From a virus: a DNA stretch of 64,000 bases. This document shows positions 2,203 to 61,607 of this stretch, one piece after another. A program made the translations under genes and the position numbers. Within the stretch, counting starts at the first letter, position 1, and every line of letters begins with the position of its first letter. The notes beneath the pieces are model-generated. The model saw only the letters and a list, made by a program, of their open reading frames with translations, searched no databases and was not told where the DNA came from. Location: the IMG/VR virus record IMGVR_UViG_3300045988_076381. One strand, 5' to 3'.

Positions 2203-2221
2203 ATTTTTAATTTAACATATA

Positions 2222-2229
2222 CAAATATA
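2222..2229 (-). promoter_or_regulatory. Bacteroidota-type -7 box TAtaTTTG
   Basis: Reverse complement of caaatata, 20 nt upstream of the start at 2202. Confidence 0.5.
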
Positions 2230-2269
2230 CTAAGATTATAGATCTAATCCTAAGATTAAATGTTAAATT

Positions 2270-2509
2270 TTATAAATTAAGATTTTTTCTTAATTCCGGA
2301 ATAATATTATTCAAATCCTTCTTCACAGCCCCTTGTCTATCTAAATACGATAGTTCTGGATATTTAATCTTTCCAAATTCATCTATAAACTCTATTGAAT
2401 CCTGAGATTTAAATTCAGGATCTGATATTATTATTGTTTTTATTTTATTTAAGTTATTCATTACATAACTATACATCACTAATACATTTTGCATTATATT
2501 ACCGTCCAT
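2270..2509 (-). CDS. hypothetical protein
   Basis: 79-aa ATG ORF with its own -7 box. Confidence 0.5.
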   Translation of the reverse strand: MDGNIMQNVLVMYSYVMNNLNKIKTIIISDPEFKSQDSIEFIDEFGKIKYPELSYLDRQGAVKKDLNNIIPELRKNLNL

Positions 2510-2544
2510 ATACTATTTGTTTAACTTTATAAATTATGTCACTA

Positions 2545-2552
2545 CAAAGATA
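2545..2552 (-). promoter_or_regulatory. Bacteroidota-type -7 box TAtcTTTG
   Basis: Reverse complement of caaagata, upstream of the start at 2509. Confidence 0.5.
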
Positions 2553-2618
2553 GTATATCTTTAATATTTAAAGAATGTATATATTATATAACAATAACAT
2601 GTGCAATTTAATTTATAC

Positions 2619-3071
2619 CTAATCAATTGCCCCTCCATTTGCTGGCGGAAGTTTTGGAGAGGTATTAGTTACAATAGTATCTAATTTAGTATTTGCCTGA
2701 ATTAAATTAGTATCTATACTAGAGGTATTCGTATGTATAGAAGTAGTTGTATCCTTTATCTGTCCTAAAGTTTCTTTAACAGGATCTAAATCAACATCAA
2801 TATTAGCTAGAGATGCTAATGCTGTATCTAATTTAGCACTAAATGTAGTAGTTAAATTCTCTATTTTAGTTATTAAATCTTGTATTTTAGTATTTGTCGT
2901 ATCTATCTTAGTATTAGTAGTATTTAATTCATTTACTACTGCTGATAATTTCTCTGTTAATAAAGCTATATTCTCTGTATTAAAATCTCCTACTCCTTCC
3001 TTAATCCCTTGTAAAAGTTGGAGGTATAGCTCATTGTAATTGGTTGTTTTATAAAAATCGTTTACGTTCAT
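2619..3071 (-). CDS. hypothetical coiled-coil protein, Thr/Asn-rich
   Basis: 150-aa ORF with heptad-like repeats (TNTKIDTTNTKIQDLITKIENL). Confidence 0.55.
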   Translation of the reverse strand: MNVNDFYKTTNYNELYLQLLQGIKEGVGDFNTENIALLTEKLSAVVNELNTTNTKIDTTNTKIQDLITKIENLTTTFSAKLDTALASLANIDVDLDPVKETLGQIKDTTTSIHTNTSSIDTNLIQANTKLDTIVTNTSPKLPPANGGAID

Positions 3072-3081
3072 TGTGATATAT

Positions 3082-3291
3082 TTAAATTATAAGTTCTATT
3101 ATTTTAGTATTGTCTGTATTTAAAATTTCTTCATTTTTGCATGGTTGAAGTTTATATGTATAACTCTCCTCTTCTGGAGTATATTTAGGTTCGGAGATTA
3201 TTTTATAATATCGTTGTAGTCCTTCTTTTATATAAAATGATTCTGGAAAAGTTAATGTTATTGGTGTAGATTCAAAAGTTGGATTTTGCAT
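3082..3291 (-). CDS. hypothetical protein
   Basis: 69-aa ATG ORF with a TAccTTTG box upstream. Confidence 0.45.
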   Translation of the reverse strand: MQNPTFESTPITLTFPESFYIKEGLQRYYKIISEPKYTPEEESYTYKLQPCKNEEILNTDNTKIIELII

Positions 3292-5063: not shown

Positions 5064-6092
5064 TTATATTAAATCTATATTATTTAAGTTATTATATATA
5101 TTCACAATCCTTTCCTTAAATTCTTTAATAGATAAATTACTCTTCATTACATTAATCTTATCCTCACAAATAACAATATTTCCTTTTATATATCCTTTAT
5201 TAGAATCTATCCTATCCACAGAAGGTCTATAATCTTTTGAAAACGGGATTCCAGAATAATAACATTTCCCCTCTTGTGCTTTGTACATCTCATTTAAATA
5301 TTCTTCTGTAATATCCAATTCCTTTTTTATATTATTTTTATTACTATAATTATATTTTCTATACTCACAATTTCTTTTACATTTATCTAATAACCACTTT
5401 CCTATATTTTCCCATTTCTTTTCTTCCTCTTCATCTCGTGCACACTTACTACATAAGAAATTTCTATGCTTATCAAATTTAGAAGGATCTGTTTCTCCAC
5501 ATTTTATACATAATTTATCAGAGTGTTTATATATAACCCTTTCTTCAGTATTCTCACCTTTTAATAATTTAGAATTAACTTGATATCCTTTAGGTGTTTT
5601 TAAAAGAGTGTACTTAGGATGTGAGATTTTTAAAGTTATATCTTTTGTATTCTTAAGTATTCCAAATAAACCTTCTGTATTAAATTCTTTTAATCTTCTT
5701 GTAATATTATAAATAGTTCCAATAACACAATCTATATTATTATCATCTAAAATTCGTTTTAATTCTCTAGCTGGAATTTTATCATATGATGGTAGAATGT
5801 TATAAAACATTAGAATGAAAGCTTTGTTGTTTAATGTTAGATCTGGATTAGTTAAAAAATCTGGACAAGATAATGATGTATGAATTTTAAATCTTGGAGC
5901 GAAGCCATTGCTGGAACAATCTTCAATATCTCCAGATGAAATTAAATGTTTTGTGGATACTTTTATTACTTCATCACTTATACCGTAAGTAGATAATTGG
6001 GAAGATAAAATACTTGCAATTTCGTCTTCTTCTTTAAATGCATTAAGGATTCTTAATACTACTTCTAATTTAAAATTTTCAATTGTTTTCAT
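5064..6092 (-). CDS. HNH-like nuclease-domain protein with zinc ribbon (putative)
   Basis: 342-aa ORF with CIKCG...CSKC, then a C-terminal GKCYYSGIPF...SVDRIDSNKGYIKGNIVICEDKINVMKSN (DRID...N...K HNH-variant pattern). Confidence 0.4.
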   Translation of the reverse strand: MKTIENFKLEVVLRILNAFKEEDEIASILSSQLSTYGISDEVIKVSTKHLISSGDIEDCSSNGFAPRFKIHTSLSCPDFLTNPDLTLNNKAFILMFYNILPSYDKIPARELKRILDDNNIDCVIGTIYNITRRLKEFNTEGLFGILKNTKDITLKISHPKYTLLKTPKGYQVNSKLLKGENTEERVIYKHSDKLCIKCGETDPSKFDKHRNFLCSKCARDEEEEKKWENIGKWLLDKCKRNCEYRKYNYSNKNNIKKELDITEEYLNEMYKAQEGKCYYSGIPFSKDYRPSVDRIDSNKGYIKGNIVICEDKINVMKSNLSIKEFKERIVNIYNNLNNIDLI

Positions 6093-6118
6093 ATTATGTT
6101 TTTTGTTGTTTAGTTATA

Positions 6119-7892: not shown

Positions 7893-7965
7893 GGTCCCAT
7901 AGCGTAAAGGTTAACGCAAAACACTCATAATGTTGAGATTCTAGGTTCAAGTCCTAGTGGGACCA
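7893..7965 (+). tRNA. tRNA-Met (anticodon CAT; could also be a lysidine-dependent Ile2 type)
   Basis: Hand-folded cloverleaf: acceptor ggtccca/tgggacc, D stem gcgt/acgc, anticodon loop ctCATaa, T-arm ctagg-ttcaagt-cctag. Confidence 0.85.
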
Positions 7966-8090
7966 CGATATTGATTTTCAGGATTTCTGAGGTTTAGAAT
8001 TTCTGGATTAATGTTTTTTGTAATTTTTTTCATGATCAGTGTTTAACATTAGCAACATTTAATGAGATGTGATATCTCCTTCCTTATTAA

Positions 8091-8113
8091 GGAGAGTTAA
8101 TACTCTCCTTTTT
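8091..8113 (+). terminator. intrinsic terminator-like hairpin
   Basis: ggagag-ttaata-ctctcc followed by ttttt. It overlaps an alternative hairpin ctcctt...aaggag (8076-8094). Confidence 0.45.
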
Positions 8114-8229
8114 AAATTTGTTTATTATGAGAAAGATAGATATAAAATACATAATGACAATAATAGGAATATTTATATTTCTATTATTATTATCTTCATT
8201 AGAATCAATCATTAATTCTATTTAAATAA

Positions 8230-8303
8230 GAGCGAATATCCAAATTGGTTAAGGGAATAGTCTGCAAAACTATATTGTGAGAGTTCGAATCTCTCTTCGC
8301 TCT
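8230..8303 (+). tRNA. tRNA-Cys (GCA)
   Basis: Acceptor gagcgaa/ttcgctc, anticodon arm atagt-ctGCAaa-actat, T-arm gagag-ttcgaat-ctctc. Confidence 0.85.
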
Positions 8304-8420
8304 CATTAAATATTATATTTAAAAGGTTATATTCGGAAATATATAAGAATGATATCTTTTAAATACTTTAAAATTATATTAATTAAAATAAATAAAAATA
8401 ATCTTTTAAATATAATAATT

Positions 8421-8690
8421 ATGAAGATCGTGATTAATAGATCCGGAATTGGATTAAATCTATCTCTACCAGCTATAGAGTATTTAATTAAATATAAAGT
8501 AATTAAGTCTCCATTAGATATGAGAAATATTAATAGGAGTAGCCCAAGATTGGTAAGATGTATCGAAGTATTAGGAGATAACGCATCTTTAGATATGTTA
8601 GAAACGATAACAGTTAGAGATGATTTTAAATATAAAATCTCTGAAATCCAAATAGGTAACATCCATAGAGAAATTATCCTCATGGAGTAA
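8421..8690 (+). CDS. hypothetical protein
   Basis: ATG-initiated part of track ORF 8349..8690. The antisense ORF 8327..8683 is low-complexity Ile/Leu and is rejected. Confidence 0.4.
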   Translation: MKIVINRSGIGLNLSLPAIEYLIKYKVIKSPLDMRNINRSSPRLVRCIEVLGDNASLDMLETITVRDDFKYKISEIQIGNIHREIILME

Positions 8691-8858
8691 GATATTTACA
8701 TATGTAAATCTAATTAGTGTACAATAATTAGATATTCCAAGCTCTACTGGTTACAGAGTATAAATAAACCTAGATTTTTAGATTTCCAAATTGACCTAAA
8801 ATCTAATATCTTAGGATTAGATATAAAATAAGCGTGGAATACTTATTGTTAAATCAAC

Positions 8859-8928
8859 TTCTTAGTAGTTTAACTGGTGAAAATGTCATATACAGTAGGA
8901 AATATTAGTTCGAATCCAATCTAAGAAG
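8859..8928 (+). tRNA. tRNA-like sequence, probable pseudo-tRNA (anticodon arm not foldable)
   Basis: 7-bp acceptor ttcttag/ctaagaa, D-loop with GG, T-arm attag-ttcgaat-ccaat (one A-C mismatch). I could find no 5-bp anticodon stem. Confidence 0.3.
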
Positions 8929-9088
8929 TGATAAAGAAACTCATATAATTCATATCTTAATATTAACCCGAAAAAAGGGCAACAGTAGGGTTGGGGTGGG
9001 TTCAGTGCCCTTGAGATAGTATCAAAATCAGCAATAATGCAGATGAGCTGTAACCACCCCTTTTATTAATAATTTTGTTTATATTCTA

Positions 9089-9160
9089 TGCGAGATAGTG
9101 TAAAGGTAACATCCTAGGCTCATAACCTAGAGGATGGTGGTTCGAATCCATCTCTCGCTA
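9089..9160 (+). tRNA. tRNA with CAT anticodon (Met, fMet or Ile2 type)
   Basis: Anticodon arm ctagg-ctCATaa-cctag, T-arm ggtgg-ttcgaat-ccatc, acceptor gcgaga/tctcgc with a mismatched 1:72 pair and a short D stem. Confidence 0.7.
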
Positions 9161-9396
9161 CTATATAATAGACTTCAGATATTTAACGCGGAATATAGAA
9201 GTTTGTTATATTTTATAATTATGCATGCTAATTATAAATCCCAACTCATCCTATGTCTAAGGGGAGTATAAATTAAAAGCAGATCCATCTTTTTGAGTTT
9301 GTATTGGTAATGAGAATAACTCTATAACTTAGAAATGTTATAAAACTTTCTTGAATTTAAGATATAAGGTTTGGGAACTTACATCATTAAATTAAC

Positions 9397-9471
9397 TCCT
9401 CAGTAGCTCAGTTGGCTAGAGCAGCGGACCGTTAATCCGTAGGATCGTAGGTTCAAGTCCTACCTGAGGAG
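9397..9471 (+). tRNA. tRNA-Asn (GTT)
   Basis: Acceptor tcctcag/ctgagga, D-arm gctc-agttggctaga-gagc, anticodon arm gcgga-ccGTTaa-tccgt, T-arm gtagg-ttcaagt-cctac. Confidence 0.9.
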
Positions 9472-9915
9472 CATAATAAAGAGTGTAGTACTAGTGTAGG
9501 ACTCAACGTAACTTATAGGTTTTGTATTGTACATATAAATTTAGTCCTATTGGGTGTCGTATAACCCAACTTAGCTATCGAGTACGGTTAATGATAGCAT
9601 TTTTATCGAACTTTCATAAAAATAATTATATGAGAAACAAGCATTATTTCCTAATAGATTAATCTGATAAACCGTATATTGGAGTTGATACACTTATAAT
9701 TGTCTAATGCAGCTTCGTATTATAAGAAGCAAGTCAATATAAGAAATCAGTTCAGAATAATGTATTGTATTCGACGTGGGATTTAAAATTGTATTTATGT
9801 GATAGATGTATAGAGAGAAGATTAAGACGGAAAATATCTGGAGAAGATCTAATTCCAAATGATCCTGTTAATAATTTATATATACAAATATGTCTAGATT
9901 TATAATTTATTAATT

Positions 9916-10299
9916 ATGAAAAAGAGAGAACTCCCAAAAGAAGTAAAGAGATGGATTAAATTTTTTATAAAAACTAATGCTTATTATAATTTTGATTGGG
10001 CATTTATGTTAGATGTAGAAAAAGAGAAATTAACTCAATGTATTAAATTTTTTACTGATAACGGATGTCATATTAATAATTCCAGAATAATTTCGAAGAT
10101 GCAATTGGCTGTGAGATTATTAGATATTGCTAGGGATGAGGATTTAGATTTTAAAGGTTATGTAAATACTAAGAATATAAATAGATTTATTTCTATAGAT
10201 AAATATGATATTGATATTCTCCCAACTCTTCGAACTGAAAAAGCGTGGTATTTATATAATAAATTAAGATATTATTATATGAAAGAATGGTGGGATTAA
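9916..10299 (+). CDS. hypothetical protein
   Basis: 127-aa ATG ORF embedded in the tRNA region. Confidence 0.5.
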   Translation: MKKRELPKEVKRWIKFFIKTNAYYNFDWAFMLDVEKEKLTQCIKFFTDNGCHINNSRIISKMQLAVRLLDIARDEDLDFKGYVNTKNINRFISIDKYDIDILPTLRTEKAWYLYNKLRYYYMKEWWD

Positions 10300-10308
10300 A
10301 TATATTAT

Positions 10309-10394
10309 GCTAGAATGGTGAAATTGACAGACACTCAGGACTTAAAATTCTGTGGATAGTAATATCCGTGTGGGTTTGAATCCCACTTCTAGTA
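10309..10394 (+). tRNA. tRNA-Leu (TAA), long variable arm
   Basis: Acceptor gctagaa/ttctagt, anticodon arm cagga-ctTAAaa-ttctg, variable stem ggata/tatcc, T-arm gtggg-tttgaat-cccac. Confidence 0.85.
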
Positions 10395-10686
10395 CTATCT
10401 AGATGTAGCAAAATCAGTGAAGTTAAATACAGAAATACGCTTCGTAAGAGAACCTGTAGTCCTTAAAGGATAGTGGTGACACTGAGCCAATCTATTTATA
10501 TAGAAGGTGAGATTCCAAAAACTACAATATTTATAGGGAATCAATCATATAAGAAATTATATGAAATCTCTGATAATCTATAGTGCCTTATAGAAAAACA
10601 GGGGATGAAGTTAAGGCACAAACTTCATTGGGATATATTCCCGGCGAAAGAGATTTTATATATCTCTGGATCTGATTATTTAATAG

Positions 10687-10749
10687 TACTTTGTGCATCG
10701 GATGCACTCCGAGGGATGTGAGGTTAAGGTTCGACTCCTTACAAAGTGC
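10687..10749 (+). other. tRNA-like element lacking a D-arm
   Basis: Acceptor-like tactttg/caaagtg, canonical T-arm taagg-ttcgact-cctta, and an internal hairpin tcgga-tgcac-tccga. It is too short for a cloverleaf. Confidence 0.3.
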
Positions 10750-10779
10750 CTAAGTAGTAATTATTTAAATATTCATATT

Positions 10780-11679
10780 ATGGAAATTAGAAATGAGAAT
10801 AAAGTATTTTTTGGAGAGAGTGGTATTACTTCTACTTCTGCTACATATTTATGTAACATTGCTAGGGAGTTATTAAAAGATATAGAATCATCTTTAAATA
10901 ATATCTCCTTCATTACTGAGGAAGTAACACTCTTTGGATCTGAGAATAAGATTAGAACTAAAGAAGGATATAATTTATCCGAACTATCTGATCTAGATTC
11001 TAAACTTACTAAAGCTGCACAACTAAAAGCATTTATAGCATGGATGAGTGAAGGAATCAAAGCAAAAGATGTGGAAAGTGAGAAACTTAGAGAATATACT
11101 TTATCTGATTTTATAAAGGATTTCCCTGAATATGTAGTACAGAGGTCTAAAGATTCTACACTAGATCCTAATTATGGACTTGGGAAATTAGATGTTTCAG
11201 AACGGGTTAAATATCTCTTCTCAGAAGCTTTAACTTCTTCAATTGGGAAATATATTCATAATAATGGTGCTTTAAGAAAAGCTTATAGCGAGCTTTTAAA
11301 TATTGCACATAACAAAGTGAATATAACCACAGAAGCAAAAGATTCTATAGTTGTAGTCACTAATAAAATCCCAAGTGTGGATACTAAAAAAGTAGAAAAG
11401 ATTATGCTTAAATATCAAGATTTACGAAGAGAGAATGAGAAGGTTCTGAACTCTTTGAAATCTAAGATAAAAAGTTATGATCATGAATATCAAATATATC
11501 TTACTCTTGAAGATAAAGCAGCTTCAGAGTCGTATAATGAAAAGATGGAAGTAGTACGTTCAAAATATAATGAATATGTATTAAATAAGAGATCGGAAAT
11601 TGAGAAACTTAAAATCATCATCCCAGATGGTTTAAGGAGTATTTATAACGATCTTCATACCATCTCAAAAGAAAAATAA
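10780..11679 (+). CDS. hypothetical protein (coiled-coil-rich)
   Basis: The first ATG of track ORF 10693..11679 is at 10780. The upstream part of that ORF is the tRNA-like element. Confidence 0.55.
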   Translation: MEIRNENKVFFGESGITSTSATYLCNIARELLKDIESSLNNISFITEEVTLFGSENKIRTKEGYNLSELSDLDSKLTKAAQLKAFIAWMSEGIKAKDVESEKLREYTLSDFIKDFPEYVVQRSKDSTLDPNYGLGKLDVSERVKYLFSEALTSSIGKYIHNNGALRKAYSELLNIAHNKVNITTEAKDSIVVVTNKIPSVDTKKVEKIMLKYQDLRRENEKVLNSLKSKIKSYDHEYQIYLTLEDKAASESYNEKMEVVRSKYNEYVLNKRSEIEKLKIIIPDGLRSIYNDLHTISKEK

Positions 11680-11957
11680 ATAAAGTAGGTAATACTTAAA
11701 TCCATTTGGATGGAGGTATTTTTATATGTATAGATTATATATATAATAAAATTTAGCTAAATAATATAGACGATAATATAAACTATTAATGCGAAAGAAT
11801 CCTCAAAAGATGTTTTTATTTAAATAAATATACTTATTTAAATATAAACTATACTCCTCTTTCTGTCTTAACCTTAGTCCTTGAGAGGATTCTTGCCCTT
11901 GACATATTCTTTGGCTGTATTTATATAATCTATACATAACTATTTTTAATAAACATT

Positions 11958-12028
11958 TGTCCTATAGTATAATGGTAATACATCTGGTTTTGGTCCAGAG
12001 AATTGAGGTTCAAATCCTCGTAGGACAA
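11958..12028 (+). tRNA. tRNA-Gln (TTG)
   Basis: Acceptor tgtccta/taggaca, D-arm gtat-aatggta-atac, anticodon arm tctgg-ttTTGgt-ccaga, T-arm tgagg-ttcaaat-cctcg. Confidence 0.85.
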
Positions 12029-12070
12029 CAATTCTATAATGGGAATTTTTAGATTGATTATTTCTTATAG

Positions 12071-21272: not shown

Positions 21273-21464
21273 AAACTTTTGTCTGAAAGTATGGTAACAT
21301 ACAGGTGAATAGATCAAAATCGATGAAGTCTAATTTAGATAATATCGAGGTAAGTATGAATTTAAAGGATTCATACCACTGTAACGCGTAGGTGTTGAAA
21401 CTATTAATTATTTATAAATTATATTTTTGCAGAAGAGATAATTGTTTTTATCGTGGAAGAATAT

Positions 21465-21472
21465 TAACTTTG
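21465..21472 (+). promoter_or_regulatory. -7 box TAacTTTG inside the intron, upstream of the endonuclease gene
   Basis: Matches TAnnTTTG, 31 nt upstream of ATG 21503. Confidence 0.4.
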
Positions 21473-21502
21473 TATTTATTACATTTTAATATTTAAATTC
21501 TT

Positions 21503-22270
21503 ATGGATAAAAACAGAAAACTAGAATTTGAGGGAAAGATATTTCCTACGAATAATTGTGGCGAGCTAAAAATCATCGAATATAATGGAGCAACTAATGT
21601 AGTGGTGGAGTTTATTACTACTAAAACTATACATTCTACCACTATGAATAACATCAAGAAAGGATCAGTATCCGATCCTATGTATCCAACAGTATATGGA
21701 ATAGGATATATGGGTATAGGAGAGTATAAAAGTAGGACTGGGACTAGTCCTCAAACAACTTGCTATAAACGATGGAAAGAAATTCTTAATCGATGCTATA
21801 ATCCTAAATGTTCTGCTTATAAATTTTATGGAGGAAATGGAGCAATTATATGTGAAGAATGGAAAAATTTCCAAAATTTTGCATCTTGGTGGTATTCTAA
21901 CTTTCCAAATTGGGAAGGAATTAAAATTGCTATAGATAAAGATTTATTATGTAAGGGAAATAAGGAATATTGTCCTGAATACTGCTGCTTTTTACCTCAA
22001 GAAATAAACGAAGCTCTTACTTTAAGAAAAAAGGAAAGAGGGGATTATCCAGTTGGAGTACGGTTAAAAGAAGGAAAAATTATTGCTCAAATTAATTACA
22101 TGGGAAATAAAAAACATTTAGGAACATTTTCCACTGTTGAAGATGCTTTTGCAAAATATAAAATAGAAAAGGAAAAGTGTATGAAAGAATATGCTGATAA
22201 ATACAAAAATATACTTTCGGAGAGAGTGTATCAAGCATTATATAACTACACTATAAATATAGATGATTAA
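21503..22270 (+). CDS. intron-encoded AP2-domain homing-endonuclease-like protein
   Basis: C-terminal GVRLKEGKIIAQINYMGNKKHLGTFSTVEDAFAKYK is an AP2-like DNA-binding motif. The ORF lies wholly inside the intron. Confidence 0.55.
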   Translation: MDKNRKLEFEGKIFPTNNCGELKIIEYNGATNVVVEFITTKTIHSTTMNNIKKGSVSDPMYPTVYGIGYMGIGEYKSRTGTSPQTTCYKRWKEILNRCYNPKCSAYKFYGGNGAIICEEWKNFQNFASWWYSNFPNWEGIKIAIDKDLLCKGNKEYCPEYCCFLPQEINEALTLRKKERGDYPVGVRLKEGKIIAQINYMGNKKHLGTFSTVEDAFAKYKIEKEKCMKEYADKYKNILSERVYQALYNYTINIDD

Positions 22271-22441
22271 TAGAATAAAATATACCCAAGAGTGATCTAC
22301 TCCTACAGGTAATGCTGAGGATGAAAATGTACGCTGAACCGTCTGATGATTAAATCAGAATATCTTTATTTACATCTTCAATAAAGTAAGGAGGAGACTC
22401 CCGGAAGTAAGAGATAAAAAACTCTTACGATAACAAAATTG

Positions 22442-42201: not shown

Positions 42202-42344
42202 ATTTAATTGATTCTTTTTATCAAAAAGTAGAAGAAGGGAAGAAAGGGAATAATATGGGTATACCATCCGGATTTCCTAAATTGGATAAGTATATATATG
42301 GTATACAAAGAAGGTTTATGAGCACAGTTATTGCCGATTCGGGT
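42198..42344 (+). CDS. DnaB-like SF4 replicative helicase, exon 1 of 2
   Basis: Ends ...VIADSG, the first half of the Walker A motif. Confidence 0.75.
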
Positions 42345-42657
42345 AAATTAAGTGCCCCTATTTAATACAAATAAATAGAAAACCATTTGAATTGCTAGGA
42401 ACTCGCGAAGATTTAGTAACTAAAACATCAGAAGAAATTCTAAATGTAAATGTTAAAAATACTAAATTATGTGATAATTAGCAGCTAAGCTCCTAAGGAT
42501 GTAATCTATGGAGAAAGTTCAACGACTATCTCGAAAGAGAGTAGGGCTAAGTAGCTCGAAGCGGATGGTATAATATTTTAATATTATAATGAAATAGTCT
42601 AATCTTACACGAAAGTGTAAGAGTATATATGGAAACGATATATACGTAATATAATTG
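42345..42657 (+). mobile_element. group I intron (family A), ORF-less
   Basis: gttcaacgacta at 42517 (classical R element), gaaatagtc at 42591 (S-like), gccc 11 nt in can pair with exonic gggU, and a terminal G. Removal gives ADSG-AGKSS. Confidence 0.75.
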
Positions 42658-43725: not shown

Positions 43726-43765
43726 AAATTTTATTAAAATATTTGGATAAGTAAAATTTTATGGA

Positions 43766-43773
43766 TATCTTTG
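43766..43773 (+). promoter_or_regulatory. -7 box TAtcTTTG, with TTTG 20 nt upstream, inside the intron
   Basis: TTTG at 43742-43745 and TAtcTTTG at 43766, 29 nt upstream of ATG 43802. Confidence 0.5.
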
Positions 43774-43801
43774 TAATTATTATTAATACAAATATATAAT
43801 T

Positions 43802-45025
43802 ATGAAGAATAAAATTTTACAACTAAGTAAGAATTGTAATAGTCTAGAAATAGCTAGAATACTATCATTATCTCTAAATGAAGTAGAAAAAGTTTTAATT
43901 GATGAATATTTTCAAAAGAAATGGAAGATATCTAAAAAGGATCTTGAAGAATTAGCTGCAAGAATCTATAATGAATCTCCAACTCTACTATCAGATGAAT
44001 TTAATATATCAGAAGTAACATTAAAAAAATATTTAGCAGATTGCAAATTGTTTAATACTAAGAAAAATGTTATCTATGTTCAAAAATCAGAGGAAGAAAT
44101 TGAAAAATTAGTTCCGGATATAGTTTTAGATTATAATAACCAATTATCTATTGCACAATTAATGGTTAAATATAAGTTATCTAAAGATAAAGTTAAAGAA
44201 ATTTTACATAATAATGAAATTTCAACCGGAAAAGTGACCTGTAATGAACATATATTTGATATAATTGATTCGGAAGAAAAGGCATATTGGCTAGGGTTCC
44301 TATATGCAGATGGAGCAGTGGGGAGTGCTGATAATACTATTGAATTAGCATTAAAACTTTTGGATTGTAAACATCTATATAAATTCAAAACTTTTATAGA
44401 AGCCAAAAGGGATATAAAAATAGAAACTAGTAAAGTTAAAAGATGCAGATTCTCTGTAAGTAGTAAACATTTAAAGTCACAACTTATTAAATTAGGTTGT
44501 ACTCCTCAAAAGTCCTTAACTCTTAAATTTCCAACTAAAGAACAAGTTCCAGATGACTATATCATTCCATTTATAAGAGGGTATTATGATGGAGATGGAA
44601 TATTAACATATAGTTGTTCTACCACTGGTAGAACAGTTTTAGCTACTGGTATGTTGGGAACTGAAAATTTTTTAACTGGAGTTTTAAGTAAGTTTAAGTA
44701 TCCATTACATTCTATTTTGCGTTTAGCTAGTTTGGAAGGATCAAGCGAATGTAAACAAGTAAATTGGTCAAAAACTGATTCTGAGGAGTTTTTAAATACT
44801 ATTTACAAAGATGCTACAATTTTTTTGGATAGAAAATATTTACGATACAAATATTTTAAAGACAATGGATTTGCCGTCCAAAAAAGTAATTTTTTGGATA
44901 ATGACAGAGCAATATCGGAAGAGTCTAAACAATGGATTAATCAGTATTTTAGTATAGATATTGATTCCTTATTGCATGATAATTCCGAGATAAATATAGA
45001 AAGTAACGATTCTATATCATCGTAA
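43802..45025 (+). CDS. intron-encoded LAGLIDADG homing endonuclease (double-motif)
   Basis: YWLGFLYADGAV and FIRGYYDGDGIL. The stop codon lies inside the conserved intron block tcgTAAcgcg. Confidence 0.85.
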   Translation: MKNKILQLSKNCNSLEIARILSLSLNEVEKVLIDEYFQKKWKISKKDLEELAARIYNESPTLLSDEFNISEVTLKKYLADCKLFNTKKNVIYVQKSEEEIEKLVPDIVLDYNNQLSIAQLMVKYKLSKDKVKEILHNNEISTGKVTCNEHIFDIIDSEEKAYWLGFLYADGAVGSADNTIELALKLLDCKHLYKFKTFIEAKRDIKIETSKVKRCRFSVSSKHLKSQLIKLGCTPQKSLTLKFPTKEQVPDDYIIPFIRGYYDGDGILTYSCSTTGRTVLATGMLGTENFLTGVLSKFKYPLHSILRLASLEGSSECKQVNWSKTDSEEFLNTIYKDATIFLDRKYLRYKYFKDNGFAVQKSNFLDNDRAISEESKQWINQYFSIDIDSLLHDNSEINIESNDSISS

Positions 45026-45203
45026 CGCGTAGGTGTTGAAACTGTATTTATTTAAATACAGAATAAAATATACCCAAGAGTGCTCTGCTCCTATTTAATA
45101 GGATGAAAAAGTACGCTAAACTGGATCAGAAATAACTGATCGATAATCAATGAGGGAAACCTCCAGAACTAAAAGATAAAAAGCTTTTAGGATAATATAA
45201 TTG

Positions 45204-50145: not shown

Positions 50146-50586
50146 ATGCTTATATATAAAGAAGAATATAAAGATGATTTCGATGATAATATCCTAAGAT
50201 GTTTAACTTGTATCCAAACTAATAATGAGGTAAAGGGATTTTTATGTCTTATTCATTATTTAAAGGAACGATATAGAAGCAACTTATTTAATATCAAATA
50301 TTATATATTGAATAACTTTAAACCAACTGCAATTGAAGAAGCCTTAGGAAAAATATATGAAAATACATTTATTGAAATAATTAAAGATTTATTAGATAAT
50401 AAATTTAATGAAATTTGCGATTTTGTAGACTATTTTATTCTATATACTAATTCCAAGTTTGAATTATTTATAGAATTTTATACGGATACAAGATTAATAG
50501 AAGGGAAGGAGTTTTTCGATAATTTAAAACAACTTATTCCTGATATTACTATACATAGAACTGTGAATGGAGAACTTCGGGACTGA
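50146..50586 (+). CDS. hypothetical protein (tandem paralogue B)
   Basis: KGFLCLIHYLKERYRSNLFNIKYYI. The ATG at 50146 aligns with the paralogue A start. Confidence 0.55.
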   Translation: MLIYKEEYKDDFDDNILRCLTCIQTNNEVKGFLCLIHYLKERYRSNLFNIKYYILNNFKPTAIEEALGKIYENTFIEIIKDLLDNKFNEICDFVDYFILYTNSKFELFIEFYTDTRLIEGKEFFDNLKQLIPDITIHRTVNGELRD

Positions 50587-51361
50587 TTTAATATCTAGAG
50601 AAGTATTATCTAAATTTAAGATAAAAATATTATCAATAAATAGTTTAGATATAACTGATGAAGTATATTTTTCTGATAAATATTCTAATTATATATCTAA
50701 TTCTAAATTAAAACTGATAAATCCTAATGAAGGAGGATCATTTAAAACATATTTAGAAGGATTAAAATCTAAATCTACTGGATCTCTGGATTTAGGATCA
50801 GCAGTTCATGAGTTAGTTCTACAAAATGAATCATTTGAATTAAATTCTTATATCAAACCATCTGGTAAAATTGGGAAAGTTATAGAGGTTGTATTTAAAT
50901 ATAGAAATAAGGGATATTCCATATTAAATGCAATTCGAAAAGCTTCCGAAGAAGTTTCTTATTACATATCTCAATTAACTGATACAAGAATATCTAATAT
51001 AATCTCATCTGGATTTAAATATTATCTTTATTTATATAAAAATAAAGATATTAAATATGATAAAGAACAAATAATCTTGGATGAAAAATCTAGGGAAACT
51101 TGTATAAAATGTGTAGATTCTATTAGAAGAAATTCTGATGCAATGAATCTCCTTTCCCCAGATGAATTTTCATTAGATCAGTATTTAAATAAGAATGAGG
51201 ATACTATAGTGATGGAAATAGTAGTAACCTTCCCTAACAGTACTTCCGATCCAAATGCAGAAGAAGTAAGTATTTTGTTAAAGTTAAAAGCTAAGATAGA
51301 TAATTGGAATTTAAATATAGATGAGGGTTTATTAAATCTAAATGATTTAAAAACTACAGGT
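50567..51361 (+). CDS. PD-(D/E)XK (RecB/Cas4-like) exonuclease, exon 1 of 2
   Basis: GSAVHE...; ends LNLNDLKTTG (D...K catalytic region). Confidence 0.65.
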
Positions 51362-52636
51362 AAGTAAAATTTTTTTATTGTATTTTATTTGTTTTATTTC
51401 ATTAAATGTATTTAATTTGTATATTATTAAATTATACAATAAAAATACATTTATGAATAATCTAAATCAAGCTATTAGTGATTACGAACATTTATTTATA
51501 GGAATTTGTGAATTAAGTAAAAAATATAAAATTCCTAATAAAGAAATTAGAAAAGCGTTAGAAGATAAAGGATATTATTTAGGAAAAGGAGTATCTCCAA
51601 AAAGTGTTGTGCATATTAAACTTGCAGTAGAGGAATATAAAAATATTCTTAATGCTGGTGAAGAACCTAATATTCATCAACTGGCATTAAAGTATGATAT
51701 TTCCGATACGTCTATAAAAGACAATTTAATTAGATTAAATCTTCCTGTTGTAAGATACCCTAAAAAAATCCATTTTGATGAACATGTCTTTGATGTTATA
51801 GATACTGAAGAAAAAGCATATTGGCTAGGATTTTTAACTGCTGATGGGTATATTTATAGTAGAGATAATACATTTGGAATTAGTCTAGCTAGTATAGATA
51901 AGCATCATGTAGAAAAATATGCCACATTTCTTAAATGTCCTCAACATGTTAAATTTAAGAATAACGAATATGCTGGAATATATAGATGTGATTTAGGAAA
52001 CGCTCATGTAAAGCAAGTATTACAAAAATATGGATTTACTGCTTCTAAATCTTTTGACTGTACCTTTTTAAAAGACCAGTTTTTTGCAAATTCCGATTTA
52101 ATAAGACATTATATTAGAGGATATTTTGATGGAGATGGCTGTGTCAGTTATAAAAAAAAGTATAGAAAAACAATTAATGCCACTATTTATATTCCGATAG
52201 TTTCTATAGTTGGAACAGAAGCTTTTTTACAAGAATTAAGAAATAAATCAAATTTAATTTGTCTTTTTCAGTCACAACAAAATCTATGGAATTTATATGG
52301 ATCTGGAAAAAAGGCAAAAGATTTTCTTTATTACATTTATAATAACGCTACTATTTATTTAGATAGAAAATACAATATTTATAGAAATTATATTGCCCCA
52401 CACTTAGAGAAATCAAGTGTTCCGCAGTGGCCAATATCGGTGGATACTGAAATGTAAATACCGAGATAAATTCAGAGATTACGAAAGGCTCTGAATCATC
52501 GTAACGCGTAGAAGGTGAATAAATATAATCCTTCCAAGAGTGGCTGCCACCTTAAAGGGTGAAAATGTACGCTGAACTATATCGAATAACAAGATATAGA
52601 AATAAAGGATAAAAAGCCTTTATGATAACAAAATTG
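51362..52636 (+). mobile_element. group I intron (family B) carrying a LAGLIDADG endonuclease gene
   Basis: Blocks gtaacgcgtag (52501), ccaagagtg (52534), aaaatgtacgctgaac and the 3' end gataacaaaattg. Removal gives DLKTTG-KPWYLFPG. Confidence 0.75.
51453..52457 (+). CDS. intron-encoded LAGLIDADG homing endonuclease
   Basis: YWLGFLTADGYI and YIRGYFDGDGCV; the first ATG of track ORF 51378..52457 is at 51453. Confidence 0.85.
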   Translation: MNNLNQAISDYEHLFIGICELSKKYKIPNKEIRKALEDKGYYLGKGVSPKSVVHIKLAVEEYKNILNAGEEPNIHQLALKYDISDTSIKDNLIRLNLPVVRYPKKIHFDEHVFDVIDTEEKAYWLGFLTADGYIYSRDNTFGISLASIDKHHVEKYATFLKCPQHVKFKNNEYAGIYRCDLGNAHVKQVLQKYGFTASKSFDCTFLKDQFFANSDLIRHYIRGYFDGDGCVSYKKKYRKTINATIYIPIVSIVGTEAFLQELRNKSNLICLFQSQQNLWNLYGSGKKAKDFLYYIYNNATIYLDRKYNIYRNYIAPHLEKSSVPQWPISVDTEM

Positions 52637-54237: not shown

Positions 54238-55395
54238 ATGAAACTAGAATTATCTAAATCGATCTTAGAATCCATCTCAAGTAGAGTAAATAACGATATT
54301 TTTACATTTGATGATGTAGAAAGTGAATATAAATTCGATAATATTCAAGAAAAGTTATATAATAGATTATATAAAAACTATCAGGATTTAACTCCACCAC
54401 AATTTGATTTAGATACATTTAGATTCACATATAAAATACTTTGTCAAAACTCTGGAGTGAAGAAGACTCCTCAGAAACAATTAAATAAAGTTAAGGATAG
54501 AAAAATTGTATATGATGCTACTACTGATGAATCTTTCGAAAGTAGAATTGTTGGTTCATCTGTAAGAGATGAAGAAGGTAAAGTAATACATTATGAATTT
54601 AGAATCCTTATTAGAGATAAAGAATCTTTTGAAGGTACTCTCACATTATCTGAAATGCAGGATATTTATGTTGGATATTCTAATAGAGGATATAATTTAT
54701 CAGCTAGGAAATTGTCTGAGAAATTCCCACAATATGATTTGATTCAATTAAAGAAGATTTTAAGAGCATTTCAGATTACTAAAGATTGTTACCCTTTTGC
54801 TCCACATATTGCAGAAAGTAAGAGTAAAGAGGAATTAGAAAGGATGTTATTAGATTTAAAATTACATTCTGCTTCTAAGAACGCTGATAGAGATGAGATA
54901 CAAGATAAGAATAAATATATCTTAGAATTAACTAAGGAACTTAACAAGTATAGGGATAAAGAAACATTCGTTAAGGATTTACTTAGAATTCCTGTTAAAT
55001 ATAATACTCCTATAACGCCTTTATATTCCGATGCTAATGAATATACTAATACGTTAGTTATATTCTTATCTGATATGCATATTGGAGCTTATAATCCTAA
55101 ATATGGATTTATACAATTGGAAGATTATAATAAAGAAGAAATTAGTAGGAGATTAGATAAAGTATATAATTTTATTATTAATAAATTATTTGATAATTTA
55201 ATTATCTGTAATTTAGGAGATAGTGTAGATTCTTATAAAGGTGAAACTGTTAGAGGTCATGAATTACCTACTACTATTACTCCAAAAGAACAATCTAAGA
55301 TGTATTTAGATGTTATGTTAGAGTTCTTTAATAAATTACTTGATTATGTAGAAAATTCTCATATTAAATATATTTGTATTGGAGATTCAAATCAT
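54238..55395 (+). CDS. Mre11/SbcD-like metallophosphoesterase, exon 1 of 3
   Basis: FLSDMHIG (motif I), NLGDSVD (II); ends IGDSNH (III minus the final Asp). Confidence 0.7.
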
Positions 55396-55697
55396 TGATT
55401 GTATTTAAATACAATTTGTGCTAATAATAAGAAATTATTATTCGAAACTAGGTTAACTGCTGGGACGCCTGAGATGGTAATCAGCAACCAAGCTACAGAT
55501 TTAAATTCTGTAGAAGGCTCATCGACTATTCCTGAAATGGAAGTAGAATCAAGCGATTCGAAATGCCTAGCCCTTAGCATTATATCTAACACAGATATAG
55601 ATGAAGGTGAAGATATAGTCAGTTCTCATATTAATAAGGAAGTATGAGGAGGTTTTATTAACCCGTATAAGAGTAGCGAACTTATATGAACACGAAG
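55396..55697 (+). mobile_element. group I intron (family A), ORF-less
   Basis: aagatatagtc at 55610 is an exact match to the S element and tcatcgacta at 55519 is R-like. A P1 hairpin places U55395 opposite G55418. The intron ends in G. Removal gives GDSNH-DGDW. Confidence 0.7.
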
Positions 55698-55835
55698 GAC
55701 GGTGACTGGGGATGGCTAAATAATATTGTTCTTGCCTCTAAATTAGAGCAATTAAATATAGAATCTTATATTTCCGATCTTCCAATTGATAAATTTGATG
55801 TTGGAAATAATTCTATACTATTCATGCATGGTGAT
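55698..55835 (+). CDS. Mre11/SbcD-like metallophosphoesterase, exon 2 of 3
   Basis: DGDWGWLNNIV...NNSILFMHGD; 138 nt, in frame with both neighbours. Confidence 0.65.
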
Positions 55836-56405
55836 ATATTTTTCATATTTTTAATATAATTATTTGGGTTCCATAGAAATAATTTATATTTGTTAAATAA
55901 TAATATATTTAATAAATAAAGATCATTCTAAAATGCTCCTTTCCTTATTAGGAACAGAAGATTTTTAAATTCTATACAAGATGTATTTTCTACTAAGTAC
56001 ACTTTGGAATATAATCATAATGATAAGAATTCTAAAACTAGAGTACTAGAAATAGCTTGTAGACCAGGGCTTAACATTTTACATAAATTATATTCACACT
56101 CAAAAATATATTTAAAAAGAAAATATGAAAGATATTTAGAATATTGCCGTCTATATGAGGAATCATATAGAGAATTAGAAACCAATAACGGGGAAGGCTG
56201 TGATGTCAATCCCGTGATAAGTACAGAAAGTAAAGAGTCTGTGCCATCGTAACGCGTAGAACTTGAACCTCGAAAGAGAATAAAATAGTTCCAAGAGTGG
56301 TTTCTACCCCAACACTTTTATAAGTAGTGGGTAAAAAGGTACGCTGGACTATAGCAAAAAGAAGCTATAGAAGTTAGGATAAAAAGCCTAACGATAACAA
56401 AATCG
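55836..56405 (+). mobile_element. group I intron (family B) with a decayed LAGLIDADG gene
   Basis: Blocks gtaacgcgtag (56249), ccaagagtg (56291), aaaaggtacgctggac and the 3' end gataacaaaatcg. Removal gives FMHGD-KDSDSQFKG. Confidence 0.7.
55933..56252 (+). pseudogene. remnant of a LAGLIDADG homing endonuclease gene
   Basis: Fragments LLGTEDF and ...IYLKRKYERYLEY...SVPS-stop are colinear with the C-terminal third of 43802..45025 (MLGTENFL...IFLDRKYLRYKYF...SISS-stop). Both LAGLIDADG motifs are missing and the frame is broken. Confidence 0.6.
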
Positions 56406-56702
56406 AAAGATAGCGATTCCCAGTTTAAAGGAATGCCTCTTACATTGAATGATAGAACAATAAATTGGGTAAATGATTATATTTATGATTCTGGATTAAA
56501 ATTTAAAGACAATCTCTATGTAGTAAAAGGAGATTTACATCAATATGCTATAACAGAATCCAGAAGGTTTCAATATATTTCTGTTCCAAGTTTATATGGA
56601 TCTTCTAATTATATAGCTGCTAATTTTGGGAAGACTAAATGGGGAGTAGGTTTTATGGAAGTATTTAATGACCATGTAACAACTGGAGTAATTAAGGAGT
56701 AA
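56406..56702 (+). CDS. Mre11/SbcD-like metallophosphoesterase, exon 3 of 3
   Basis: KDSDSQFKGMPL...VVKGDLHQYA (GxH motif). Confidence 0.65.
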   Translation, partial: KDSDSQFKGMPLTLNDRTINWVNDYIYDSGLKFKDNLYVVKGDLHQYAITESRRFQYISVPSLYGSSNYIAANFGKTKWGVGFMEVFNDHVTTGVIKE

Positions 56703-59741: not shown

Positions 59742-60573
59742 AAAATGTCTGGGATTTAATAAAGCGATTTATTATCTAAACTTTCTTAATTGCTGGGAAC
59801 TCCTAAAGCATTTTCTTACTAATTATTAATTTTAAATACTATAGTGACAATGGAAAATGATGTTACAATGGACAATCAGCAGAATTTATCTCTCTTCACT
59901 CCGGTAAAAGGTTATGAAGATTATTATTTAATTAACGAAGATGGAGATGTTTATTCTATTAGAAGTAAGAGATTACTAACTTCTCATTATAAGCATCGAT
60001 ATTGGCAATATGAATTTAATGTAAACGGAAAGGTTACTTATCCACAAAAACATAGATTAGTGGCTTTAACATTTATTCCTAATCCGGACAATAAGCCGTA
60101 TGTGAATCATATTGATGGTAATAGAAATAATAATTATGTATCTAACTTAGAATGGTGTACAGCTAAAGAAAATACGGCTCACGCTAGAAGAGTTGGATTA
60201 ATAACCGATGATGAATATGTAGAATATACTTTATTAAATTCTAATAAAGAGGTATTATACTCTGCTTTCGGATATAAGAAATTTTTACAAAAGACAGGAA
60301 TGTCTGATGGTGTTTTATATAGAAGTAAAAATACAAATAAACCAATAAGTAGAAGGAAATTTAAAGGATGTTATGTTTATGTAAACAGACAGCCTAAAGG
60401 ACGTAAAGAGATATAGATTTTCAACGACTATCCCGAAGGGAGTACATTACAAGCTAATGGTAATGGAAACAGAAAGCATCTCTCGTAGATGTTGATATAG
60501 TCTGATCTTATATGAAAATATAAGCAGTTCATAAGAGAACGCAGTAATTCTTGCGAGATTACTGGAACACTTG
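59742..60573 (+). mobile_element. group I intron (family A) carrying a NUMOD4-HNH endonuclease gene
   Basis: ttcaacgacta at 60420 (R), gatatagtc at 60494 (S), agcagttcataagagaacg near the 3' end, and a terminal G. Removal gives GGFLAP-GPNGL. Confidence 0.8.
59850..60416 (+). CDS. intron-encoded HNH homing endonuclease (NUMOD4 + HNH_3 type)
   Basis: GYEDYYLINEDGDVYS (NUMOD4) and VNHIDGNRNNNYVSNLEWCTAKENTAHA (HNH). Confidence 0.85.
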   Translation: MENDVTMDNQQNLSLFTPVKGYEDYYLINEDGDVYSIRSKRLLTSHYKHRYWQYEFNVNGKVTYPQKHRLVALTFIPNPDNKPYVNHIDGNRNNNYVSNLEWCTAKENTAHARRVGLITDDEYVEYTLLNSNKEVLYSAFGYKKFLQKTGMSDGVLYRSKNTNKPISRRKFKGCYVYVNRQPKGRKEI

Positions 60574-61338
60574 GGACCAAATGGTTTAAGAAATGCTCTA
60601 AATAAAATAGATTCTTTACTAGATAATGTTCATAAAACTACTAGAAAACTCTCTCCACTTAACTGTGCTGATATATTATCACACTGTGCAGACAGTGTAC
60701 TTTCGGGTGGTGTGCGCAGGTCTGCTTTAGCTATATTATTCTCTCCTAATGATGAGGAGATGTATAATTCTAAAGTAGGTAATTGGTTTTATGATAATCC
60801 TCAACGTGGAAGATATAATGCTTCTGTTGCTTTGGAGAGAAGTGATGATAATAAAGAAGTATTTAATAAAATCTTTGAATCTACTAAAGAATATGGAGAA
60901 CCTGGGTTTTTCTTTAGGTCTGATTCTGGTATAGGTTGTAATCCATGCTTCGAGATTGGTTTTAAACCCGTACTAGAAATACAGAAACCTGATGGAGTAT
61001 CTAAACAAACCGGGATACAGTTTTGTAATTTGATCTCTATCTCAGGTAAAGAATCTACAACAGAAGAAAAATTCTATAAACAATGTAAAGCAGCTGCTAC
61101 TATTGGAACAATTCAAGCTACATATAATTCTTTCCCTTTCTTGGGTGAAGTAACAGAGCAATTAGCTAAGAATGATCCATTAATTGGAGTATCTATTAGC
61201 GGGATTATGATGAATCCTGATATATTATTAAATGAAAATATTCTGCGTAAAGGAGCTGAGATTATTAAAGAACAAAATAGCAAAATAGCTAACTTACTAA
61301 GAATTAATCCTGCATCTAGGACTACTTGTATTAAGCCT
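60574..61338 (+). CDS. ribonucleotide reductase large subunit, exon 2 of 3
   Basis: GPNGL...LSGGVRRSA...EYGEPGFFF...CNPCFEI...FCNLISI...TTCIKP. Confidence 0.8.
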
Positions 61339-61607
61339 AAAATATTGGGCATTTAAATAGTAATATTTAAATATAAACACCGTGAATTGCTGGAATGGTT
61401 TATTTCTATATAAACCTAATCAGCAGCCAAGTTAAATCGGGTTCAACGACTATCTAGAAATAGAGTACAGTGTAAGCTAATGACACTGGAAGCGCGGTGC
61501 TCCTATTATTTAAATAGGATGATGATATAGTCTAATCTATATGGTGACATATAGCAGTTCATAAGAGAACGTATATAAGAGTTGCGTCTTATATAGAATA
61601 TATAATG
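61339..61607 (+). mobile_element. group I intron (family A), ORF-less
   Basis: gttcaacgacta at 61441 (R), gatatagtc at 61524 (S), and the same agcagttcataagagaacg block as the first RNR intron. Removal gives TTCIKP-DGNISTL. Confidence 0.8.

Follow-up and report, generated by a model that had tools for sequence, protein, structure and literature searches.

Within a 64,000-nucleotide stretch of viral DNA (IMG/VR record IMGVR_UViG_3300045988_076381; hereafter the window), positions 54238-56702 constitute, with a probability of about 0.9, one calcineurin-like metallophosphoesterase gene of three exons, interrupted by two self-splicing group I introns of which the second carries a decayed endonuclease gene. 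The phosphoesterase gene forms part of the module for replication and recombination in an uncultured gut phage that is rich in AT (G+C content of the window, 27.5%) and whose relatives have genomes of about 160-170 kb. An earlier annotation made from the letters and their open reading frames (ORFs), the sequence-only reading, had proposed a phosphoesterase gene with introns of two different families. This proposal is borne out by a single-stretch match of the joined exons to phage protein families, by intron-less homologues and by the ribozyme cores of both introns. The exons, introns, endonuclease remnant and ribozyme elements described below all lie on the + strand.

Exon structure of the phosphoesterase gene

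Three ORFs mark the locus. The ORF 54238..55398 terminates in ...GDSNH*, a short ORF spans 55698-55835, and the ORF 56433..56702 lies farther 3'. The segments 54238-55395, 55698-55832 and 56406-56702 join in frame into 529 codons, corresponding to a protein of 529 amino acids (aa). Exon 1 (54238..55395; 386 codons, ending at U55395) encodes the N-terminal domain, motifs I (SDMH) and II (LGDSVD) and the first part of motif III (GDSNH), including the invariant residues D279, H281, G327, D328, N385 and H386. Exon 2 (55698..55832; 45 codons, 135 nt; DGDWGW...FMHG) completes motif III and holds the motif IV histidine, H430. Exon 3 (56406..56702; 98 codons and the stop; KDSDSQFKG...GDLHQY...) contributes motif V (GDxH). 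The two introns are 135 nt apart and each is inserted inside an invariant catalytic motif: intron 1 at GxxNH|D of motif III, and intron 2 at H430-G|K, after the motif IV histidine. The sequence-only reading had noted that two metal-binding motifs of one enzyme are occupied, and both insertion sites do fall in invariant metallophosphoesterase motifs.

The joined protein aligns with PHROG 22398 (E = 5e-25) and with PHROG 284 'exonuclease' (E = 1.5e-23) in a single stretch, residues ~195-518, that runs across both junctions. A search of 5.8 billion proteins identified 225 homologues. Homologues of ~490-540 aa (39-62% identity) are uninterrupted through ...CIGESNHDGDWGW... and ...LHGKDxxxQFK..., and more than 100 intron-less full-length homologues run colinear straight through both junctions. 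Truncation precisely at the junctions is seen in the closest protein clusters, with GDSNH as the last residues of P0003 and P0008, and with P0001 and P0002 stopping after FMHGD and a few intron-encoded residues. For annotation purposes the three ORF fragments are to be merged as one 529-aa metallophosphoesterase with corrected junctions.

The arrangement had been called twin introns, which is apt in that two introns are neighbours. It is not a twintron, because between the introns lies a conserved coding exon of 135 nt, which directly adjoins its neighbours in intron-less alleles. Skipping of exon 2 was also considered; it keeps the frame but removes invariant residues, and was rejected.

Intron 1

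Intron 1 (55396..55697; 302 nt) is an ORF-less group I intron that opens with an in-frame UGA and ends at the terminal guanosine G55697. Its ORF-less state and its position at GDSNH|D, both previously proposed, are supported. When 55300-56500 was scanned alone, the Rfam model RF00028 aligned over its whole length (1-253) to 55401-55640, scoring 67 bits at E = 1.5e-16 (gathering score 50). The site is empty (CAT|GAC) in two related contigs, L002 and L005, whose alleles, ...AA(C/T)CAT|GA(C/T)GGTGAC..., set the boundaries of the intron. In P1, CAU|UGAUUGU... pairs with ACAAUUUGUG (55411-55420), which places U55395 opposite G55418, and P2 is formed by 55423-55430 with 55435-55442. The P2 strands AAUAAUAA/UUAUUAUU become GAUAGUAA/UUACUAUU in the related contigs L127 and L128, a covariation that was judged by eye.

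Homologous introns occupy the intron-1 site in L127, L128 and a further relative, L067. The L128 copy is 1068 nt long and holds an intact 292-aa ORF in its P1 loop (Pfam LAGLIDADG_3, 34.9 bits vs 22.5). Because the C-terminus of this ORF (...FCADSKKLLFETRLTAGTPEMVISNQ...) shares its frame with a meaningless 82-codon ORF of the window, 55399..55647, the window intron is a derivative from which the endonuclease ORF has been wholly lost.

Intron 2 is a group I intron with a covarying core

Intron 2 (55833..56405; 573 nt) ends at the terminal guanosine G56405 and has a helix between P7 and P3'. It belongs to a set of related introns, here termed family B, and is a group I intron whose core is confirmed by covariation. 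BLAST detected three paralogous copies within the window (~21.3-22.44 kb, 43726-45203 and 51362-52636), which share with intron 2 the core TAACGCGTAG...CCAAGAGTG...GTACGCT. The pattern CCAAGAGTGN{15,45}GTACGCT matched at least 120 IMG/VR stretches; among the matches listed, ~64 are unique copies with the full conserved TAACGCGTAG core and the others are chance matches in coding sequence.

The order of elements in family B begins with the exon ...GGU, four intron nucleotides, the L1 loop, the internal guide sequence (IGS) NNUUGCC, P2, the P3 5' strand, J3/4 (AAAA), P4, J4/5 and P5. It continues with P6 and P6a, J6/7 (GUAAC), P7 (GCGUA), P7.1 with P7.1a, CCAAGAGU and the P3 3' strand, and is completed by P8, J8/7 (GAAAAUG), P7' (UACGC), P9, P9.1 (loop AUAAAAAG) and GAUAACAAAAYYG before the exon. 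The L1 loop measures 5 nt in ORF-less copies and exceeds 1 kb where it holds an ORF. The ribozyme body of intron 2 spans 56142..56405, with positions mapped from a 26-copy alignment. The IGS lies at 56142-48, P2 at 56151-58/56163-70, P3 at 56178-83/56299-304, P4 at 56188-93/56210-15 and P5 at 56196-98/56205-07. P6 (56216-18/56246-48) is extended by P6a and followed by J6/7 (56249-53), P7 (56254-58/56340-44) and P7.1 (56259-63/56287-91) with P7.1a. The 3' part comprises P8 (56305-09/56329-33), P9 (56349-55/56364-70) and P9.1 (56374-78/56387-91). G56405 directly precedes AAAGAT, and its position is fixed by the empty L128 allele.

Covariation was assessed on a MAFFT alignment of 26 diverse family-B copies with a structure string that was fixed before counting. 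Standard pairs account for 96.4% of 1021 cells, compared with 34.7-43.7% in controls whose 3' partners were displaced by 1-3 columns. Compensatory changes on both sides occur in 26 of the 41 pairs, the covariation score reaches 0.538 (displaced controls, 0.05-0.11), and none of 500 shuffles matches any observed measure. P3 is 100% paired, with five of its six pairs covarying, and crosses P7 to form the group I pseudoknot. An unconstrained minimum free energy fold of the minimal, 280-nt copy in L005 recovered P1, P2, P3, P4, P5, P6/6a, P7.1/7.1a, P8, P9 and P9.1 (z = -3.6) but not the pseudoknotted P7. Another assignment, with GCGUA/UACGC as P3 and CAAGAGUG as the P7 5' strand, was dropped once the true P3 partner upstream of AAAAUCGG was seen to covary.

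The 5' splice site of intron 2

Intron 2 begins at 55833. Its 5' splice site, 55832|55833, follows GGT, which would cut the protein at HG|KD and gives exon 2 its length of 135 nt. The sequence-only reading had set both features three nucleotides downstream, with an exon 2 of 138 nt (55698-55835) and a cut at FMHGD|K rather than FMHG|K. Three independent lines point to the upstream position, namely an empty allele, intron-less homologues and the pairing of P1. L128, which is without intron 2, reads TTCATGCATGGT|AAAGACAGTGAT (CATGGT|AAAGAC), and the intron-less homologues all have HG-KD at this point. The P1 5' strand, 55830..55836 (GGU|GAUA), pairs with UAUUGCC (56142-56148) through G55830-C, G55831-C and the wobble U55832.G, followed by G.U, A-U, U-A and A-U. 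In the copy at 43726 the pairing is maintained by compensatory change, GGU|AAAU with AUUUGCC, at a junction that is fixed by the protein (SKPKSG|KST, a P-loop). Two ORF-less copies from other contigs, L038 and L088, read GGU|AAUA...UAUUGCC with the P1 strands 9-14 nt apart.

The sequence upstream of each family-B copy was also searched automatically for GGT joined to the IGS complement. A match was obtained for half of the copies, and with wobble ~1 match per 1.8 kb would arise by chance. P1 was relied on only where its position coincides with a junction fixed by the protein or by an empty-site comparison. Little if any weight can be given to a junction at 55835, which would read CATGGTGAT|AAAGAT and yield FMHGD|KDSD. 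U55835 is likewise a U, the frame is kept, and ORF callers run ...HGD into the intron, as in clusters P0001 and P0002. However, the L128 allele lacks the GAT, the additional D is absent from all intron-less homologues, and in P1 the partner of U55835 is an A, the G of UAUUGCC being opposite U55832.

The endonuclease remnant overlaps the ribozyme

The remnant of a LAGLIDADG homing-endonuclease gene occupies 55918..56252 and corresponds to the last ~111 of 351 codons, with its stop UAA at 56250-56252 in J6/7. The reference for this comparison is L002, a 163.9-kb contig whose intron 2 is 1310 nt long and contains an intact 351-aa ORF with the motifs YWLGFIFADGYI and FIRGYIDGDGCI (Pfam LAGLIDADG_1, 26.1 bits vs a cut-off of 23.1). 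The window intron equals the L002 intron minus ~733 nt (L002 ~5387-6118), a loss that removed the ATG and both LAGLIDADG motifs. The deletion junction lies at ~55917-55920 and shows 2-3 nt of microhomology. A 1-nt loss in the T-run 55962-55966 (T6 to T5) creates the frameshift LLGTEDF*. There are two other differences in the shared 492 nt, so the decay of the endonuclease gene is recent. The alignment to the intact L002 gene agrees with the earlier observation that the frame is broken and both motifs are missing. Likewise, the fragments LLGTEDF* and ...IYLKRKYERYLEY... are colinear with the product of 43802..45025, as had been proposed, over its residues 284-379 (E = 9e-5). A further match of the remnant is to positions 234-305, out of 308, of PHROG 4645 'endonuclease', at the C-terminal end of that family. 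Since the start and both motifs are lost and the frame is shifted while the L002 copy is intact, the window copy is interpreted as a pseudogene of a family member.

The sequence-only reading had further stated that the C-terminal third of the gene is retained in a conserved stop context. The third is present, but it is not a random leftover: 56142-56252 doubles as the last 37 endonuclease codons, with the IGS, P2, P3, P4, P5, P6 and J6/7 all within the reading frame. The 3' ~111 nt of the remnant survive because they serve as the 5' half of the ribozyme, and the conserved stop context is explained by the stop UAA being the UAA of J6/7 (GUAAC). The sole dispensable debris is 55918-56141 (~225 nt), which is still undeleted. 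In the smallest derivative, that of L005, everything between the P1 5' strand and the IGS has been deleted and nothing else, so that the deletion ends exactly at the P1 hairpin. At this locus, where the ORF overlaps the ribozyme, decay halts at the ribozyme boundary.

Allelic states in related phages

The two insertion sites were compared in six related contigs and the window. Their empty forms are written ...TTCATGCATGGTAAAGACAGTGAT... and ...GATTCAAATCATGACGGTGACTGG..., and empty-site DNA, which had been suggested as something to look for, is found at both positions in close relatives. L129 (60% aa identity) has no intron at either site. L002 has none at site 1 and, at site 2, the intron with the intact endonuclease gene, and L005, a 161.5-kb contig, has none at site 1 and the minimal intron of ~280 nt at site 2, which is also found on one further contig, L006. 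L128 carries an intron with an intact endonuclease gene at site 1 and none at site 2. Both sites are occupied in the remaining three. L127 combines an ORF-less intron with an intron that bears an endonuclease gene, inside which the contig ends. L067 (166.9 kb) combines an ORF-less intron, 97.7% identical to that of the window, with a full-length intron whose endonuclease gene has one in-frame TGA, and the window combines the ORF-less intron with the intron that holds the endonuclease remnant.

The full-length endonuclease gene of L067 (IMGVR_UViG_3300045988_060497) occupies 2159-3217 of that contig, and its TGA results from a single TGG to TGA change at Trp codon 142. Stop-codon recoding has been reported for some crAss-like groups. 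Either the gene is at a stage of decay, inactivated by this nonsense codon, or the TGA points to read-through.

Exon 2 stands out as a divergent patch, being 84.6% identical to L002, 86.8% to L067 and 92.6% to L005, whereas exons 1 and 3 are 97.8% and 97.0% identical to those of L002 and the last 490 nt of intron 2 reach 99.6% identity to L002. Relative to L005, the 10 nucleotide differences in exon 2 change only 2 residues. Together with 55833-55916, exon 2 looks like a recombination or co-conversion tract between two homing sites.

The locus and its relatives form a compact series in nature in which the endonuclease gene is gained, inactivated by a point change or partly deleted, and in which the minimal ribozyme and the empty site are also represented. 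The life cycle of homing endonucleases put forward by Goddard and Burt in 1999 is said to consist of invasion, fixation, degeneration and loss. The sequence-only reading had deduced stages of such a cycle from different introns of the window; in the relatives all stages are seen at one and the same gene, in near-identical genomes.

Proposed splicing and alternative explanations

After transcription, each intron would fold and catalyse its own excision through the usual two transesterification steps, initiated by guanosine. The resulting joins, ...AATCAT|GACGGT... and ...CATGGT|AAAGAT..., would produce the 529-aa enzyme, and the expected spliced junctions are GATTCAAATCAT|GACGGTGACTGG and TTCATGCATGGT|AAAGATAGCGAT. 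Both introns come from lineages with a LAGLIDADG gene in the P1 loop that reads on into the ribozyme. In the window genome, intron 1 has lost this gene completely. In intron 2, one deletion of ~733 nt has removed the first two thirds of it, and the 1-nt frameshift arose after or before that deletion. With the endonuclease genes lost, the introns probably still splice but could no longer home.

Several observations weigh against the interpretation of the locus as one functional gene with two active introns. We infer the splicing of both introns from sequence. The Rfam scan of 55300-56500 at E <= 10 gave nothing for intron 2, only two chance matches to long non-coding RNAs; the miss by RF00028 is attributed to the subgroup coverage of the model and not to the fold being absent. 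P7 of family B is invariant, and its pairing is for this reason neither backed nor contradicted by covariation. The ~305-nt insert in L1 could in principle slow folding, and the exact deletion of the window is absent from all fetched contigs, as an assembly artefact would be. As regards the enzyme, the Pfam family PF00149 (Metallophos) scored 16.2 bits, below the cut-off of 21.5, and reached E < 0.01 in just 2 of 16 homologues, and a sequence-profile search of the PDB returned no relative.

These points bear on three other explanations. Intron 2 may be a group I intron that was crippled by its deletion, through loss of a maturase function or misfolding of L1, which would leave the phosphoesterase non-functional in this strain. 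Some LAGLIDADG proteins act as maturases, and the deletion is so far peculiar to the window among the fetched contigs. This explanation is nevertheless unlikely, as L002 has almost the same sequence in the ribozyme part. Furthermore, the even smaller derivative in L005 and L006 and the commonness of ORF-less members such as L038 and L088 argue for splicing that is independent of the protein. A chimeric assembly of co-occurring strains would account for the deletion junction and for an exon 2 that is 84.6-92.6% identical to relatives between flanks that are 97-98% identical to L002. It is very unlikely, given that a short-microhomology deletion and a homopolymer indel are typical of real mutation, that homing introns are expected to co-convert the exon sequence on their flanks, and that L067, an independent contig, has intron 1 and its flanks in one contiguous stretch at 97-98% identity. 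Highly improbable, finally, is a dead or split gene in which the intervening sequences stay in and the pieces either make up a pseudogene or encode small proteins of their own. The deduced nature of the splicing leaves room for it, and there are ATG codons at 55686, 12 nt upstream of exon 2, and at 56433, inside exon 3. Yet the catalytic motifs are distributed over all three pieces, the exons are in frame and conserved, and both intervening sequences have complete ribozyme cores. In addition, variants with one or two introns recur in many samples, the P0001 cluster alone having 599 members. A single interrupted gene with two group I introns is accordingly the preferred interpretation.

The encoded enzyme

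The gene product is a predicted Mre11/SbcD-type metallophosphoesterase, as judged by its motifs and modelled fold. The residues D279-x-H281, G327-D328-x-x-D331, N385-H386, H430 and G473-D474-x-H476 are invariant in 16 full-length homologues, and the motif set DxH / GDxxD / GNH(D/E) / H / GxxH is the metal-binding set of calcineurin-like metallophosphoesterases. Because the family assignment is weak at the level of sequence, fold comparison was used instead. The AlphaFold model, built on the alignment, has a mean pLDDT (predicted local distance difference test) of 71.8, with 80-91 in the core strands. The best Foldseek matches in the PDB, with a probability of 1.00 and E values as low as 1.4e-8, are all metallophosphoesterases (GpdQ, Rv0805, Mre11, the PolD DP1 exonuclease, Vps29 and YfcE). 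Matches at E <= 1e-3 number 110.

The invariant DxH, GDxxD, GNHD, H and GDxH are shared with Mre11/SbcD-type enzymes and with the phage 'DNA repair exonuclease' PHROGs 284, 704 and 22398. Unlike Mre11/SbcD-type enzymes, the phage protein has an N-terminal extension of ~270 aa, for which no family match was found. This region (residues 1-270; window 54238-55050) is conserved, with invariant Y119, Y147, G151, F178, K182, P189 and H190, and a long helix is present at residues 197-248.

Comparison with known introns

A helix between P7 and P3' is a hallmark of subgroup IA, and by the architecture laid out by Michel and Westhof intron 2 presumably resembles that subgroup. Intron 2 shares with the subgroup IA phage introns (T4 td, nrdB and sunY, Twort orf142 and SPO1) a U at the 5' splice site opposite a G in P1, a terminal G and the P3/P7 pseudoknot. 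Family B further shares the extra helix P7.1/P7.1a between P7 and P3', and insertion in conserved catalytic motifs of DNA-metabolism genes is likewise common to them. In contrast to the subgroup IA phage introns, P7 of family B is GCGUA/UACGC rather than GACUA/UAGUC, and RF00028 gives no match. The ORFs of the T4 introns are looped out of P6a or P9.1, whereas the family-B endonuclease ORF lies in the P1 loop and overlaps the ribozyme from the IGS through J6/7. Extension of the 3' end of an ORF into ribozyme core sequence has been termed 'core creep' (Edgell, Chalamcharla and Belfort 2011, PMC3073962). The 3' end of the intron-2 ORF lies within the ribozyme core in the same manner, but the overlap, at ~37 codons, has an unusual length, takes in the whole 5' half of the core and puts a lower limit on deletion.

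Intron-dense crAss-like gut phages of the Zeta group (145-192 kb) contain group I introns with LAGLIDADG homing endonucleases, which were found through protein domains (Yutin et al. 2021, PMC7886860). That approach would miss copies without an ORF or with a decayed one, such as the two described here. The phage of the window resembles the Zeta group as a gut metagenome phage with many group I introns in core replication genes and with relatives on contigs of 160-190 kb, a circumstantial likeness in relatives' size, gut origin and intron density. Megablast of the locus against GenBank phages found no relative, only the intron core in crAss-like cr6_1, and tblastn against GenBank phages with the phosphoesterase and the DNA polymerase gave only distant matches. 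Family-B ribozymes of ~70% identity are present, unannotated, in the crAss-like phages cr6_1 and cr118_1, a Lak megaphage, and Staphylococcus, Mammaliicoccus and Bacillus phages.

The locus is a clean but ordinary example of the known cycle of invasion, decay and loss, and leaves the current understanding of group I introns unchanged. A more far-reaching view can be offered only tentatively: family B may constitute a lineage of its own among phage group I introns, one that is invisible to Rfam, with the endonuclease gene in the P1 loop overlapping IGS-J6/7 and decay constrained to stop at the IGS. The six states in phages that are 85-99% identical would then form a datable homing series with exon co-conversion.

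Whole-window (gathering score) and 24-kb (E-value) Rfam scans dropped both 55401-55640 (67 bits) and a group I match at 42335-42621 (83 bits), which surfaced only in scans of <=1.2 kb. This looks like an effect of speed filters in very AT-rich sequence, and such a loss matters for any intron census. Counts of gut-phage introns obtained through RF00028 or endonuclease domains are underestimates, because Rfam misses intron 2 and drops intron 1 and the copy at 42335.

Other introns and features of the window

The gene block of the phosphoesterase also holds a family-A DNA polymerase, a DnaB-like helicase, a Sak4-like ATPase, a primase, an exonuclease VIII-like nuclease and a ribonucleotide reductase, and several genes of this replication-recombination block are likewise interrupted. 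The window contains at least seven, probably eight, group I introns, among them copies with LAGLIDADG or HNH ORFs. The tRNA genes, six or seven in number, are clustered at 7893-12029 (two for Met, and Cys, Asn, Leu-UAA and Gln-UUG, plus one at 8859-8928 detected by Rfam only), with no suppressor tRNA among them.

The family-B intron at 43726-45203 has an intact 407-aa LAGLIDADG ORF (43802..45025) and splits the Walker A motif (SKPKSG|KST) of the Sak4-like ATPase. Its ORF-less relatives in other phages (L038, L088) occupy the same kind of site, and in cr6_1 the two halves of the ATPase are annotated as separate genes on either side of an 'intron-encoded endonuclease'. The family-B intron at 51362-52636, with an intact 334-aa LAGLIDADG ORF (51453..52457; Pfam LAGLIDADG_3, 42 bits), lies within a nuclease gene of exonuclease VIII / DUF3799-like type, whose exon 1 is 50567..51361 and which is unbroken, at 369 aa, in L002 and L005. 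The fourth family-B intron of the window, at ~21291-22441, differs in the position of its endonuclease gene (21503..22270; PHROG 953 'HNH endonuclease', E = 1e-60), which lies in the P7.1 loop and not in L1. Two endonuclease families have thus invaded the same ribozyme independently. The 5' splice site of this copy is limited to about 21290|21291 by an in-frame stop at 21295.

The remaining group I matches belong to RF00028. The intron at 42335-42621 lies in the region of the DnaB-like helicase, and matches at 61329-61554 (101.7 bits) and, below threshold, at 60368-60524 (22 bits) are found just upstream of a ribonucleotide-reductase-like ORF.

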